From positions 1 through 48,365 of the forward strand of contig JAHQWL010000033.1 of NCBI GenBank assembly GCA_029856155.1: a DNA stretch of 48,365 bases. The letters are read 5' to 3'. This document shows positions 12,946 to 18,391 of the stretch, in pieces. The position numbers and the translations under genes were made by a program. The notes under the pieces are model-generated. The model was not told where the DNA came from. It ran no database searches and was given only the letters and a program-made list of their open reading frames with translations. The DNA comes from Promethearchaeia archaeon (GTDB taxonomy: Archaea > Asgardarchaeota > Lokiarchaeia > Sigyniarchaeales > SOKP01). The first letter of the stretch is position 1, and every line of letters starts with the position of its first letter.

Positions 12946-13224
12946 TTATATTATAGGTGGTTTTAATTCTTTTTTTGGCTTTTTTATATCATAATTTTTG
13001 TTCATTTTCCATGTATAAATCCCTAAACCTATTAAAAAAAAAGAAAACAATAAATAAGCCGTCCAAAATGTAATACTAACTGCGAACCATCCCATACTAA
13101 AAATCCTATTCGAAATCGCAGCAACAGCTAATCCCGTTAATGCTAAAACTGATGATAGAAGACCACAAATTATATCAAAATAAATTGCTATTCTTTCATC
13201 TTTTATTTCTCGTTCTGATTTCAT
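12946..13224 (-). CDS. small two-helix membrane protein, hypothetical
   Basis: Two long hydrophobic segments and a basic C-terminus. Confidence 0.7.
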   Translation of the reverse strand: MKSEREIKDERIAIYFDIICGLLSSVLALTGLAVAAISNRIFSMGWFAVSITFWTAYLLFSFFLIGLGIYTWKMNKNYDIKKPKKELKPPII

Positions 13225-13279
13225 TTAATTAATCATCTTAAATATAATATTTTAGTATTACAAGTAATATTAATGAGTT

Positions 13280-13561
13280 TTAGTTAAAAAAACTTTCAAG
13301 TAAATCATAATATACCTTTAAAATCTCCTTTTTCGTCAAAAATATAAATCGAAAATAATATTTTCCAAAATCTACAAATCCAAAACTATAAACACCACAA
13401 ATTCCTGTAGTTTTAAAAAGATCCATTCTAAACTCTTAGTTATCTTTTTAATCTTTAAATTCGTTTAAATCTAATTTTTGAAATAAATACAAGGCTCCAT
13501 AAGGTTTAACACAAGTTATACCCTCAACTTTCATTAAACGAGTATATGAGTAATCTCTTCT
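13280..13561 (-). pseudogene. C-terminal remnant of a class I/II PLP aminotransferase (alanine aminotransferase-like)
   Basis: Manual translation: RRDYSYTRLMKVEGITCVKPYGALYLFQKLDLNEFKD*KDN*EFRMDLFKTTGICGVYSFGFVDFGKYYFRFIFLTKKEILKVYYDLLESFFN*. It follows the family C-terminal pattern RRD...RL..I.G....P.GAFY.F...G.GF....FR..FL and has two internal stops. Confidence 0.82.
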
Positions 13562-13615
13562 TTATATTTGATAAAATAAGTTCTAGATAAAAAATTTATT
13601 TAGAGCTATAAATAG

Positions 13616-14731
13616 CTATAGAAGAGATTCTATAGGCTCATACGGATAATTGAAAGTCTCAGCAATTTCCTTTATTGTTATAGCTCCTTTTAGAAGATTT
13701 ACACCTCTTCTTAATGGGGGATTTTTTTTTAGTACTTCTATAATATCATCATCAGATATTAAATTTAATAGATATGGAAACAAACTTTCAGAAAGTGCTT
13801 CAGTAGCGGTCCTTGGATACGCTCCAGGCATATTTGATACACAATAATGAATTATATCCTCAACAATGTAAGTTGGATCTTCATGAGTTGTAGCTCTACT
13901 AGTTTCAATACAACCACCTTGGTCTATTGAAACATCTACAATTACAGCCCCCGGTTTCATGGATCTAACCATTTCTCTTGTAACTATCCTAGGTGCTTTT
14001 GCGTTTGGAATTAAAACTGTTCCTATCAGAATATCTGATTCTTTAACATTATTTCTTATATTTCTTATATTTGACACAAAGATATTAATTCCTTTAGGTA
14101 AAATGTCTTTTAAATATCTAATTCGTGTTATACTTTTTTCTAGAATTGTTACATTAGCTCCTAAACCATAACCTGCCAATGCAGCACTTAAACCTGCAGT
14201 GCCTCCACCTAATATAGTAACTCTACCCCTATAAACTCCAGCAACTCCTCCTAATAAAACACCTTTACCTTTATTATGTATTGTAAGCAAATTAGCTCCC
14301 TTAATTAATGCCATTCTTCCCGCAACTTCAGACATAGGTATTAAAATTGGTAAATGACCATTATCCAATTCAACTGATTCAAATGCAATTGCAGTTGATT
14401 TACCTCTCATAAAAACATCTGTTAATTCTTTAATTGCAGATAAGTGGAGGAAAGAAAATAATATTGGTCCAGGATTAAAATAATTTAATTCTTCTAAAAT
14501 AGGTTCTTTTACTTTAACAAGTATGTCTGAGTTTGAATAGATCTGCTTTTTATTTTCATAAATTTTAGCACCTGCTTTTATGTATTCTTCATCATTAAAT
14601 CCTGCGTTTTTTCCTGCATTGCGTTCCGTAATAATATTATGGCCTAAATGTATAAGTTCTTCAACATTATATGGAGTAAGGCTTACTCTTCCTTCTCCAA
14701 GCTTTATTTCTTTAGGAATTCCTATTATCAT
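13616..14731 (-). CDS. ald: Alanine dehydrogenase (bacterial AlaDh/PNT type)
   Basis: [36 protein letters not shown] Rossmann motif, [22 protein letters not shown]. Confidence 0.95.
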
Positions 14732-14810
14732 TTTTCTCTCAAAACTAAATAGTATAAATTAAATCTTTATAATTTGATTATAAAAAATATTTCAAATAAA
14801 TTTAAATTCA

Positions 14811-15032
14811 CTAATTAGAATCAATTTGCTAAAAGTTTTTTCCATCAAAAGAAGCATCTGTTAATGGTTTGGAAATTTATCATGGTGTTTGAAAATCATT
14901 TATAACAAGGTCTCTAATATTTGGATAATAAATTATTTTCCCACTCTTAGTAACTTCAGATGCTAAAGCAGCGATTTCACGGTTCGCATAAGAAATATCT
15001 CTAACTCTTTGCCAAATTATATTTATTCCCGT
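14811..15032 (-). pseudogene. N-terminal remnant of the same alanine aminotransferase-like gene
   Basis: Manual translation: TGINIIWQRVRDISYANREIAALASEVTKSGKIIYYPNIRDLVINDFQTP**ISKPLTDASFDGKNF*QIDSN. This is a degenerate version of the R...I.YAIR......A.E....G..I..LNIGDP...DF..P......G.N.Y.DS pattern; ACG sits at the probable former start. Confidence 0.78.
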
Positions 15033-15111: not shown

Positions 15112-16173
15112 CTATAATAATAGATCCCAATTCATATCTTTTTCCATTAATTCTAAAACTTTTTCTATTTCATCTTCCTGTATACCTGGTTTTAACCGCT
15201 CTAAATTTCTCATAGTAGTATATGTGTCAGAAGGGCTTAAGATAATTGGTATCCCTTTAGCATTAGCTGCTGTAATTACCCCTATATCAGGTTGAATGAA
15301 ACCTGTTAGTATCAATACTGAAACATCTTGCGCTAATGCTGCCATGGCTAAATCCGTTCTGTCGCCCCCTGTAATAAATGCTGCTCGTTTAATTTGCCTT
15401 AAATACTTTAACGCTGACTGTGCATTCATAGCACCAATAAGGAAAGTTTCCACTAAATTATTTAATCCAGAAGAAGCTTGTTCATTTATTAATTCTCCAC
15501 CAATTTGGGCTACGATTTCATTTACGCGAGGTGAAAATAACTCTATACTTTTTTCTATTATTCCTAATACAGGTATATCATATCTATTTATATGGTCTTC
15601 TGTAAGCTCTTTAATTCTTGCAACGTATTCATAATCTATTTTATTAAATAAAATACCTTTAATACCAATATTACGGAACTCAAAGTAATTTTTCGTAAAA
15701 AATATATTATCTATGCAATGATCTGACGATTCTGTAGAAACATATATCAACTCATTTATACCAAGAGTCTTTGCAATACTCACATCATCAAGTCCCACTC
15801 TAATGAATTTCCTAAGACTTGGATTACCTTCAATAATAACATAATCTACTTCCTTAGTAATTTTATCATAAGTATTTTTTATTTTTTGCATAAATTCTTC
15901 TTTTTTATCGGCATTAATCAAATCAACGTAATAGGAATCTGGAATAGAAACAGGTGAGATATAGTCATATGGAAAATCTGTTTGGTAAATAGTATTTAAA
16001 ATAAATCCAACATCTGGATCTGCTTTATTTGTAAAGGCACTTTTAGGAATACCAATAGGTTTGAAATAAACAAACTTTTTCCTTTCCTTTTTTAATTTTT
16101 GAATGAATCCTATAGAAAGAAAGCTTTTTCCAGCATGTTCTCGTAAAGAGCTTAAATAAAATATTTCTACCAT
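15112..16173 (-). CDS. Phosphotransacetylase N-terminal-like protein (AAA_26 P-loop plus DRTGG domain), no Pta catalytic domain
   Basis: AGKS, YFKPIG, VIIEG, ITGGDRTD, ILTG; directly downstream of the acyl-CoA synthetase. Confidence 0.85.
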   Translation of the reverse strand: MVEIFYLSSLREHAGKSFLSIGFIQKLKKERKKFVYFKPIGIPKSAFTNKADPDVGFILNTIYQTDFPYDYISPVSIPDSYYVDLINADKKEEFMQKIKNTYDKITKEVDYVIIEGNPSLRKFIRVGLDDVSIAKTLGINELIYVSTESSDHCIDNIFFTKNYFEFRNIGIKGILFNKIDYEYVARIKELTEDHINRYDIPVLGIIEKSIELFSPRVNEIVAQIGGELINEQASSGLNNLVETFLIGAMNAQSALKYLRQIKRAAFITGGDRTDLAMAALAQDVSVLILTGFIQPDIGVITAANAKGIPIILSPSDTYTTMRNLERLKPGIQEDEIEKVLELMEKDMNWDLLL

Positions 16174-16240: not shown

Positions 16241-18391
16241 TTATCTTCTTATGGTAATTTTTATATCCACAGCACTATATCCTCTCACAAAAGCAAGAAG
16301 AGGATTAATATCTAATTCAACTATCTCCGGAAAATCATTTACAAGTTGAGAAAGTCTAAGCATTACATCTATGATTGCCACAATATCTGAGGCAGGTTCA
16401 CCTCTTACTCCCTGTAAAAGGCTGAATATTTTAGTATTTTCAATTTGTAGCTTAGCATCTTCTCTTGTATATTTATATGCTAATGCAAATGATACATCTT
16501 TCATAAAATTAGCATATATTCCTCCCGTTCCGAACATAAGGATAGGTCCAAAACCAGGATCTTGAGACATACCAATGATTATCTCATTTATCTTTTCTTG
16601 CGATTTAAAATCAATCATCTCTTGGACTTCTACCCCGTAAATTTTAGCATTCTGTGGACCAAATTTTTTAGCGTTATTCACTATTTGTATATAAGCTTCA
16701 AAGGCATCTTGTTCGGTTTCAATATTTAATAGAATTCCCCCAACATCCGTTTTATGTATAATATGTGGACTTACTATTTTCATTACAGATTTACCAATTT
16801 CAGATTGTAATTTCATAGCTTGTTGGGGGGTTTGAGCTAATCGGGATTTGGGGGATTTTATTCCATAACAATCAAAAACCTCACTTGTTTCATAACTTAA
16901 TAAAACCATTCTGTCATCTTTTCGAACATTAGAGAAGATTTCTTTTACTCGTTTTTTGTTTACTTTAAATGAAGGAATTTCTAATTGATTTAATGGAGTA
17001 GTTGTTAAATAATTACTTCGCTTTGTTAAGGTTTTTAATGAATGAGCAGCTCTATCTGGAAAATGATAACATGGAATATGATTTTGTTTTAAATATTCTC
17101 TCCCCTCAAAAATATTTTTTCCTCCAATAAACGAACATACGATTGGTTTGGTTTCTAAATATTTTGATGAAATATTATGAATTAGTTTTGCAACTTCAGT
17201 AGGTTTAGTTTGAGCCTGGGGAGTTAAAATTATTAAGGCTCCTTCTGTTGTTATATCGTTAAAATTTTGTCCAGAATTTAGGCCAAAAACAGTTTTAATT
17301 GTAAATTCATATCTATTTGGTGTAGCATCTCCTACAATATCAATTGGGTTAAAGATTGCTGCTTCTAAAGGCAAATTTTCTCTTAAAGAATGAAGAATTG
17401 GTTCTGAAAAACTTGAAAATTTCAAACCTTCACGTTCAAAAGCGTCTGTAGCTATGATCCCTGGTCCTCCGGCATTTGTAATAATCGCAAAAGAATTTGT
17501 TTTAGGAATTGGCTGATAAAGAAAAGCTTCACCATAATCAAATAAATCTTCAATCGTTTTTGCTCTGATTACTCCACATTTCTCAAAAGCTAAATCATAA
17601 GCAATGTCTGCTCCTGCTAAAGCACCAGTGTGACTTGAAGCAGCTCTGGCACCAGCTTCACTTATTCCAGATTTTAACATTATAATTGGTTTTTTTCTTG
17701 TTGCTTTTGGTAAAACTTCAAGGAATCTATCACCATCCTTAATACTTTCTAAATAACATAAAATAACTTTTGTATTTTGATCATTAGCTAGATAATCTAT
17801 AAAATCTACAGCCCCTAAATCTGCTTTATTACCCAAACTTATATTACAGGAGAATCCATATGATTCATTCATACTGAGATCCATCATCGCAGTAAGCATA
17901 GCTCCTGACTGTGATATCATAGCTATACCTCCTTTTTTTGGAGTTTCTGCAGCGAATGAGCCATTATAGTTAAGACCGATAAAACCTAAACAGTTTGGAC
18001 CTAAAATTCTTATATTATACTTTTTACCTATTCTAATTAGTTCGTCTTCTCTTTCATGTCCTTCTCCTCCAATTTCTTTAAATCCCGCTGAAATGATGAT
18101 TAATCCTTTGATTCCTTTTTTACCACATTCCTCTGCTGTTTTATTAACAAATTTTCCTGGGATAACAAAAATAGCTATATCAATATCTTCAGGTACATCT
18201 AAAACGCTTTTATAGCAACGTAAATTACAAATCTCGTGAGCTTTTGGATTTATGGGGTATACTTTGCCGTTATAACCCGAATTTATTATATTATTTAAAA
18301 CGGTGTTGCCAACCTTCCCCTCTGTTTCACTAGCTCCAATTACAGCTATACTTTTAGGATTAAAGAAAAATGAGATATCGCTATTAGCCAT
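16241..18391 (-). CDS. acd: ADP-forming acetate/acyl-CoA ligase, fused alpha-beta subunits
   Basis: PKSIAVIGAS, LGPNCLG, SQSGA, phospho-His ASSHTGALAG, NAGGPG, NPIDIVGDA, HKTDVGG, ELDINP; no GNAT domain. Confidence 0.92.
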   Translation of the reverse strand: MANSDISFFFNPKSIAVIGASETEGKVGNTVLNNIINSGYNGKVYPINPKAHEICNLRCYKSVLDVPEDIDIAIFVIPGKFVNKTAEECGKKGIKGLIIISAGFKEIGGEGHEREDELIRIGKKYNIRILGPNCLGFIGLNYNGSFAAETPKKGGIAMISQSGAMLTAMMDLSMNESYGFSCNISLGNKADLGAVDFIDYLANDQNTKVILCYLESIKDGDRFLEVLPKATRKKPIIMLKSGISEAGARAASSHTGALAGADIAYDLAFEKCGVIRAKTIEDLFDYGEAFLYQPIPKTNSFAIITNAGGPGIIATDAFEREGLKFSSFSEPILHSLRENLPLEAAIFNPIDIVGDATPNRYEFTIKTVFGLNSGQNFNDITTEGALIILTPQAQTKPTEVAKLIHNISSKYLETKPIVCSFIGGKNIFEGREYLKQNHIPCYHFPDRAAHSLKTLTKRSNYLTTTPLNQLEIPSFKVNKKRVKEIFSNVRKDDRMVLLSYETSEVFDCYGIKSPKSRLAQTPQQAMKLQSEIGKSVMKIVSPHIIHKTDVGGILLNIETEQDAFEAYIQIVNNAKKFGPQNAKIYGVEVQEMIDFKSQEKINEIIIGMSQDPGFGPILMFGTGGIYANFMKDVSFALAYKYTREDAKLQIENTKIFSLLQGVRGEPASDIVAIIDVMLRLSQLVNDFPEIVELDINPLLAFVRGYSAVDIKITIRR

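Follow-up and report, generated by a model that had tools for sequence, protein, structure and literature searches.

An alanine dehydrogenase gene between the remnants of an AlaAT-type aminotransferase gene in a Lokiarchaeial genome, and its counterparts across the genus

Introduction

How does the gene of one alanine-converting enzyme come to lie inside what is left of the gene of another? The question is raised by a stretch of 48,365 nucleotides from a Lokiarchaeial metagenome-assembled genome (MAG), contig JAHQWL010000033.1 of assembly GCA_029856155.1, referred to here as the window, in which an intact alanine dehydrogenase gene (ald) is flanked by two short regions that look intergenic. 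An earlier note on this DNA, made without database searches, had read these regions as the two ends of a gene for an aminotransferase of the alanine aminotransferase (AlaAT) type, abbreviated AT in what follows, and had proposed that ald displaced it in situ. Concerning the two reactions, AlaAT interconverts alanine plus 2-oxoglutarate and pyruvate plus glutamate, and glutamate dehydrogenase is needed for net amination or deamination; alanine dehydrogenase (AlaDH) performs the net alanine-pyruvate reaction in one NAD(H)-linked step.

The locus was compared within a genus sample of 54 species genomes, all of them MAGs, where G000 is the label of the window genome and the other G numbers denote genomes of the same genus. 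The reading that we favour, and hold to be quite probable, is that a small cassette carrying ald replaced the middle of AT and that it spreads between species as an allele.

Results and Discussion

The flanks of ald are the two ends of one aminotransferase gene

The translations of both flanks were searched with the stop codons masked. The C-terminal stretch (13283-13561) had its best match in the Protein Data Bank (PDB) with the AlaAT of Pyrococcus furiosus (1XI9, residues 312-400, E 9.7e-14), followed by AlaA of Escherichia coli. For the N-terminal stretch (about 14832-15023) the top match was also 1XI9, over residues 14-70, but it was weak (E 0.23). When the intact AT of the related genome G005 (L021:1859-3055) was used as the query in tblastn, the N-terminal stub aligned to residues 2-65 with 64% identity (E 2.9e-17) and the C-terminal stub to residues 304-398 with 70.5% identity (E 1.9e-36). 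Neither fragment, translated with masked stops, matched a Pfam family. Both remnants are on the same strand, in N-then-C order and in register on one family member. Delimited by these alignments, they comprise about 63 codons (14835..15020, minus strand, with the G005 ortholog) and about 95 codons (13277..13561, minus strand, with 1XI9 and the G005 ortholog). The identification of the flanks in the earlier note is thus borne out, and the limits that it gave (14811-15032 and 13280-13561) were correct within a few codons. It had also suggested checking that the two fragments belong to the same family, and both matched the same protein, be it 1XI9 or the G005 ortholog.

The N-terminal stub has lost its start, the ancestral ATG being now ATA (15018-15020), and carries adjacent TGA and TAA stops at 14877-14882. 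Internal TAA stops are present in the C-terminal stub at 13448-13450 and 13436-13438. No frameshift was found within either stub. The missing segment corresponds approximately to residues 66-303 and includes the pyridoxal-phosphate (PLP) lysine K237 of the motif 'NGFSKS' (G005 frame), so that the stops and the absence of the PLP-lysine region had both been noticed correctly. With the start lost and four internal stops, the window AT has no continuous open reading frame (ORF) with the PLP-binding lysine of the SxK motif. Because the segment with this lysine is gone and stop codons are present, the copy is a pseudogene and does not count as a functional AlaAT member. No second copy of the AT ortholog was found in G000, where the next aminotransferase is 33% identical.

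The inserted gene and its cassette

The gene between the stubs (ald, 13616..14731, minus strand) is intact and encodes 371 amino acids. Its product scored 423.6 bits against the AlaDH equivalog model TIGR00518 (cut-off 391.85), covering positions 1-368 of 370, contains the complete domains PF05222 (AlaDh_PNT_N) and PF01262 (AlaDh_PNT_C), and aligned over the full length with the solved AlaDH 8HYE (E 5e-112). In the alignment, the sequence 'GGGTAG', which conforms to the GxGxxG pattern, stands opposite the identical motif of 8HYE. R15 in 'GEGRV', the lysine of 'VKVKEP', the histidine of 'FLHLSA' and the aspartate of 'SIDQGG' are likewise aligned and conserved; we take the catalytic roles of the corresponding Arg15, Lys74/75, His95/96 and Asp269/270 to be those assigned in the enzymes of P. 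lapideum and M. tuberculosis. By these family criteria the window ald is an alanine dehydrogenase with predicted NAD-dependent activity. The incoming and the displaced genes are unrelated, the former belonging to PF01262/PF05222 and the latter to the class I aminotransferase fold.

What stands in place of about 710 bp of AT (approximately codons 66-303) is a self-contained cassette of about 1.27 kb, composed of an upstream block of about 100 nt (14732..14832, minus strand), the intact ald, and a T-rich tail (13565..13615, minus strand) with a T6 run in the 13586-13597 region. It joins the AT remnants on the left at about 14832-14835 and on the right at about 13562-13565. The upstream block is alignable in all nine ald-bearing genomes of the genus, whatever lies further upstream, and therefore ald travels with it. 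This block is presumed to be a putative archaeal promoter with a 5′ leader, and the T-rich tail could be a terminator. The tail, about 50 nt after the stop codon, is common to G000 and G001 and is absent from G018 and G012. Neither terminal inverted repeats nor a target-site duplication nor a transposase was found around the cassette, and its insertion as a mobile element was for this reason rejected.

A 13-nt inverted repeat (12 of 13 positions complementary) spans the 52-nt tail, between 13552-13564 and 13617-13629. Its two arms lie in the last codons of ald and in those that open the C-terminal AT stub, and it may be due to chance.

The intact aminotransferase and its neighbours in related genomes

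The AT ortholog is intact in 36 of the 54 genomes. It aligns end to end with 1XI9 (E 1e-129), with E. coli AlaA (4CVQ) as the next structure, and its best NCBIfam model is NF006230, 'alanine aminotransferase', with 507.6 bits, below the cut-off of 534 and yet ahead of the next model (272 bits) by a wide margin. On these scores it is best described as AlaAT-like, in agreement with the earlier assignment to the AlaA/Thermococcales AlaAT group.

In the loci of all 19 AT-only relatives inspected, the order was the same: a gene for a fused ADP-forming acyl/acetyl-CoA synthetase (ACD), a gene for a DRTGG-domain protein resembling the N-terminal part of phosphate acetyltransferase (DRTGG), AT, a small conserved ORF (orf92), and then an acetone-carboxylase-like operon (acx), with no ald. 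An intact aminotransferase at this position, without ald, is what the earlier note had anticipated for relatives. The position of ACD as the first gene was kept in every relative locus whose fetched stretch extended that far, and DRTGG followed directly in all the loci inspected. On the other side, orf92 (12946..13224, minus strand in the window) was found by tblastn downstream of AT or ald; it came after AT in every relative locus whose fetched stretch passed beyond, serving as the right-hand synteny anchor, and it gave no match in Pfam or NCBIfam.

The spacer between DRTGG and AT is compact (about 115-140 nt) in G062 and G056, and in others it is a variable stretch of 0.6-1.3 kb with small hydrophobic ORFs on the opposite strand. 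Taking AT and ald loci together, most relatives have a variable stretch of 0.6-1.9 kb at this place (e.g., L022:5358-6595, L024:5712-6977 and L037:6346-8292), the ORFs being of 76-250 amino acids, very hydrophobic and, in AT-only genomes, on the opposite strand. The slot between DRTGG and AT or ald thus looks like a local hotspot of gene turnover.

Three particular cases were observed among the intact AT loci. In G008 (L024:8516-9032), the intact AT and orf92 are followed by the decayed 3′ end of a tandem AT, with stops, and by a second orf92; the decayed copy covers residues from about 297 to 397, and its beginning nearly coincides, along AT, with the right junction of G000. In G066, an intact-looking AT is split over two contig ends (L100:1-738, residues 1-246, and L101:5932-6321, residues 270-399), and this assembly break inside AT could reflect mixed alleles in the sampled population. 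The G005 gene used as the query has no ATG near its 5′ end and shows an apparent TTG start where most congeners have ATG.

Distribution of ald and architectures of the locus

The ald gene occurs in nine of the 54 genomes, always at the AT locus, and in eight of these nine there is no intact AT. Both genes are absent from nine more genomes, of which at least four also lack the DRTGG gene. On the rpoB tree, seven phylogenetically independent pairs differ in ald; the median number of these in which AT differed the opposite way was six, and in none did it differ in the same direction. Displacement in situ, as proposed in the earlier note, is supported by the stubs and by synteny; to be added is that it is not private to G000, as nine species carry ald at this place.

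Two contexts of ald can be distinguished. In the first, seen in G018, G067, G012, G043 and, near the gene, G003, no AT sequence lies upstream of ald, which begins about 260 nt after DRTGG (1.9 kb in G003). G018 shows DRTGG, ald and then, about 200 nt downstream, an intact AT of 395 amino acids, a state that can be called the addition stage. Since G018 holds both genes, addition can precede loss. In its sister G067, AT has been lost and orf92 comes almost directly after ald. Faint C-terminal traces of AT are left in G043 and G003, and a trace of 23 nt in G012. A decayed N-terminal stub hidden in the 260-nt spacer between DRTGG and ald of G018, G067, G012 and G043 was considered and rejected, as no similarity to AT was found there.

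In the second context, shared by G000, G041, G042 and G001, the cassette lies inside AT. In G041 the N-terminal 63 AT codons, open and started by ATG, pass into the upstream block of ald at the position that is also the junction in G000. A deletion between two TGGAAAA strings has shortened this left junction in G042. G001 has in common with G000 the right junction and the 50-nt tail, followed by a C-terminal stub that is more decayed. Both stubs are well preserved in the window genome alone.

In G041 (L045:8036-8270), the reading frame of the N-terminal stub begins with ATG, is free of stops for about 78 codons and continues into the ald upstream block. Such a frame points to an insertion younger than that in G000 or, possibly, to a translated leader.

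Age of the stubs

The species tree used here was an rpoB nucleotide tree of 50 genomes, on which the closest relatives of G000 are G045, G005 and G066 (support 100), all with intact AT and without ald. The C-terminal stub DNA of G000 shows 81% identity to the AT of these three genomes and only 66% to the G001 stub. For the N-terminal stub DNA the values are 76-77% with the AT of the sisters and 71% with the G041 stub. The stubs of G041 and G001 are likewise nearest to the AT of their own relatives. The G000 stubs, then, derive from the AT of their own lineage.

The substitutions of the G000 branch were polarised with outgroups. They amounted to 54 of 504 sites in the stubs (10.7%), 68 of 676 at the four-fold degenerate sites of flanking genes (10.1%), and 62 of 4950 at first and second codon positions (1.25%). 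The stubs have changed at about the rate of the four-fold sites, and AT has therefore been free to drift since about the time when G000 separated from its sisters. This age fits that of the ald allele: at four-fold sites the G000 ald is 0.76-0.77 identical to those of G041 and G001, and rpoB is 0.77 identical between G000 and G045.

The history of ald differs from that of its neighbours

The presence of ald is scattered on the rpoB tree, where at least seven changes are needed to account for it. The ald tree joins G000, G041 and G001 in one clade with support 99, in conflict with rpoB, which rejects this clade (log-likelihood lower by 470; approximately unbiased test, p-AU 0.002).

Pairs of genomes were then compared by the identity at four-fold degenerate sites, taking as flanks the genes on the same contigs. 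For G000 and G041 the values were 0.76 for ald, 0.51 for rpoB and 0.47 for the flanks, and for G000 and G001 they were 0.77, 0.49 and 0.53, respectively. For G042 and G003, ald gave 0.82 and rpoB 0.57. In distant pairs the four-fold sites of ald are as saturated as those of other genes, and therefore there is no general constraint on its synonymous sites. The conflict of the ald tree with both rpoB and the flanks supports the view that the ald cassette has moved between species of the genus.

An observation of the opposite sign concerns G012 and G043 (L036 and L046), with nearly identical rpoB (0.96) yet ald alleles that are clearly less alike (0.75). The ald of one of the two was probably replaced recently.

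Origin of ald

The homologues of the window ald form a continuous Lokiarchaeial series from 90% down to about 60% identity, followed by a gap and then by bacterial proteins at about 50%. In the rooted ald tree, the genes of the genus are monophyletic (support 97) within a Lokiarchaeial clade (support 100), and G018 and G067 branch first. In other genera of the family, ald is present in 16 of 81 genomes and, in loci taken with 1.5-kb flanks, it is not next to DRTGG or AT. The immediate source of ald is another species of the genus, and the deeper one is the Lokiarchaeial ald clade. So, of the donor lineage that a phylogeny had been expected to point to, it can be said that a congener takes that role. 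A recent bacterial donor was rejected, given the nested position of the genus clade and the distance to the nearest bacterial proteins.

We infer a single entry of ald into the AT locus of the genus. G018, with the two genes side by side, likely shows the early form, because of the root of the ald tree and because it keeps a working AT.

Proposed history and alternative explanations

The following course of events may be proposed. The single entry of ald into the locus would have placed it initially beside AT, as now seen in G018, and a derived allele with the cassette inside AT would have arisen afterwards. Both forms of ald would then have moved between species by recombination, probably by way of the homologous flanks or the arms of AT, and the transfer into the G000 lineage would have occurred soon after its split from G005, G045 and G066. 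Homologous recombination that uses the AT ends or the neighbour genes as arms could produce the same junctions in different native AT genes.

The fact that the stubs are native to each recipient lineage could also be explained if ald had been inserted independently in each of them at a hotspot within AT, for instance by microhomology. Intact AT genes do have, at the break point, an 11-nt sequence, AAAATTTTTAT, that recurs where the G012/G043 type of the cassette has its 5′ edge, but in DNA so rich in A and T such a match is weak evidence. Separate insertions do not account easily for a left junction in which G000 and G041 agree to the base region and from which that of G042 is derived through the TGGAAAA-repeat deletion, nor for a right junction and a 50-nt tail of non-AT sequence common to G000 and G001. 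The lack of terminal repeats, target-site duplication and transposase also speaks against them, and we regard this explanation as improbable.

We also consider it quite improbable that the allele with ald inside AT is old and was inherited vertically, the AT-only species, including the sisters of G000, having regained AT by recombination with AT-bearing relatives. The ald tree follows in part the species groups, with G042 and G003 in one rpoB clade and G041 and G001 in another, and homologous flanks would permit allele replacement in either direction. However, the ald genes of G000, G041 and G001 are much younger than the split of their species (0.76-0.77 versus 0.49-0.51 at four-fold sites), the G000 stubs are nearest to the intact AT of the sisters, and the lineage-specific changes of the stubs only match what neutral sites have gained since that split. 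In addition, G062 and G056, which are AT-only sisters of ald-bearing pairs, show no trace of ald in their compact spacer.

A retained role of the stubs, for example as a leader peptide of ald or as an element regulating it, finds its best argument in the open N-terminal stub of G041. It is nevertheless very unlikely, in view of the lost start codon and the stops of G000, the neutral rate of substitution, and the loss of one or both stubs in other ald-bearing genomes. An artefact of assembly or binning, which the MAG origin of all the genomes and the split AT of G066 might bring to mind, can be practically dismissed, since four genomes assembled independently of one another show the same architecture, within contigs of 17-53 kb and between conserved genes, and since the stub decay is specific to each genome.

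Some points weigh against the replacement of the AT middle by a cassette that spreads between species. The sister ald alleles of G042 and G003 lie in different left-hand contexts, and the history thus includes rearrangements without determinable order. A mosaic ald in G042, which might have reconciled its left context with a gene like that of G003, was rejected, as the gene resembles that of G003 throughout. The species tree is based on rpoB as the single gene, together with the flanks. Although all the genomes are MAGs, the comparisons that decide the matter were made with genes located on the same contigs. Recombination itself is not observed: the arms of G000 are native-like up to the right junction, so the crossovers are unplaceable, and no donor-derived tract is visible in its DRTGG gene. 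An attempt to place the crossovers inside the arms was dropped because too few informative sites are left after about 10% neutral decay. Finally, the AT ortholog scores under the NF006230 cut-off (507.6 versus 534), and the function and direction of the enzymes are inferred from homology alone.

Metabolic meaning

With the exchange of genes, alanine and pyruvate would no longer be linked in a 2-oxoglutarate-dependent way but in one step, through NAD(H) and ammonia, next to the acetate-forming, ATP-yielding ACD. With either enzyme beside ACD, alanine could be converted to pyruvate, acetyl-CoA and acetate with the formation of ATP, or alanine could be made as a sink of reducing equivalents. The earlier note had spoken of a switch from transamination to NAD-linked deamination. 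The switch of enzyme family is supported; as to the direction, the sequence is compatible with deamination as well as with alanine formation.

Concerning glutamate dehydrogenase (GDH), in G000 only the last 126 or so codons of a gene are left, outside the window (contig C22:35871-36236; L126:1501-1878, minus strand). This remnant is 89% identical to residues 330-455 of the 455-amino-acid gene of G045, and the DNA homology to G045 ends there. No other GDH was found in G000, a genome 97% complete, and the sisters G005, G045 and G066 have three to four intact paralogues. As a lead, the truncation fits a switch at the level of the pathway. A loss of GDH as the general partner of ald gain was not supported across the genus.

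A wider interpretation, which we put forward tentatively and hold to be possible rather than probable, is that the AlaAT and AlaDH alleles constitute a trans-species polymorphism. Homologous recombination, occurring often across species boundaries, would move the 1.3-kb cassette by means of the dead-gene ends or the neighbours, and selection on the coupling of the alanine-pyruvate reaction, to NADH and ammonia or to glutamate and 2-oxoglutarate, would pick the allele; in G000 the switch may accompany the loss of GDH. If true, this would provide a directly traceable case of interspecies gene flow and of pathway-level rewiring in Asgard archaea.

Relation to known systems

Non-orthologous gene displacement in situ is a process already known, and the locus illustrates it clearly and in several stages. 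For conserved operons, displacement in situ was reportedly described by Omelchenko, Makarova, Wolf, Rogozin and Koonin in 2003 (Genome Biol 4:R55). Common to both is the replacement, in the same slot and with the neighbours unmoved, by a horizontally acquired gene whose job is, here by prediction, equivalent. The present case differs in that both ends of the displaced gene are still visible around the incoming one, that the addition intermediate (G018) and several stages of loss occur within one genus, that the donor is a congener instead of a distant lineage, and that the two enzymes have unrelated folds and different cofactors, which makes the displacement non-orthologous and not xenologous.

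With respect to the P. furiosus AlaAT, which together with glutamate dehydrogenase forms the route of Thermococcales, the genus ortholog is alike over the full length and the remnants are in register. The difference from this enzyme and from E. coli AlaA is that the window copy lacks approximately residues 66-303, and that the genus ortholog is AlaAT-like by sequence alone. The window ald resembles the bacterial-type AlaDH (TIGR00518; 8HYE, 2EEZ, 1PJB and 2VHW) in full length, in both domains and in the catalytic and NAD-binding motifs. It differs in its clade, which is specific to Lokiarchaeia and shares about 50% identity with the closest proteins of bacteria, and in its behaviour within the genus, that of a small allele that is mobile but bound to a single locus.

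A displacement of this kind is usually inferred from end states alone. Here the whole series survives in one genus (AT only; ald beside AT; ald inside AT with both stubs; one stub; no stub), and this makes it possible to measure in what order the events came and how fast the remnants decay. The evidence from single contigs also indicates that Lokiarchaeial species exchange short chromosomal segments, which bears on the mapping of Asgard metabolic traits onto species trees. In metabolic reconstructions, it should not be assumed that one alanine-pyruvate route holds across a genus.

Other genes of the cluster in the window

The window has a G+C content of 30%. ACD (16241..18391, minus strand) encodes a fused alpha-beta protein of 716 amino acids with the Pfam domains CoA_binding, Succ_CoA_lig and ATP-grasp_5, and its score against TIGR02717 (567.8) lies at the cut-off of the model. 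DRTGG (15112..16173, minus strand) encodes a protein of 353 amino acids with the Pfam domains AAA_26 and DRTGG, which aligns to the N-terminal half of the phosphate acetyltransferase model NF004167. The acetone-carboxylase-like operon is on the plus strand and converges on the ald cluster.

The 5′ half of the DRTGG gene of G000 is 0.82-0.87 identical to that of the sister G045, which is no closer than to more distant species; with G046, a more distant species than G045, the identity in the first comparison window of the gene is 0.93. The adjoining ACD is 0.89-0.98 identical to that of G045 along its whole length. The odd 5′ half of the DRTGG gene hints at a second recombination tract.

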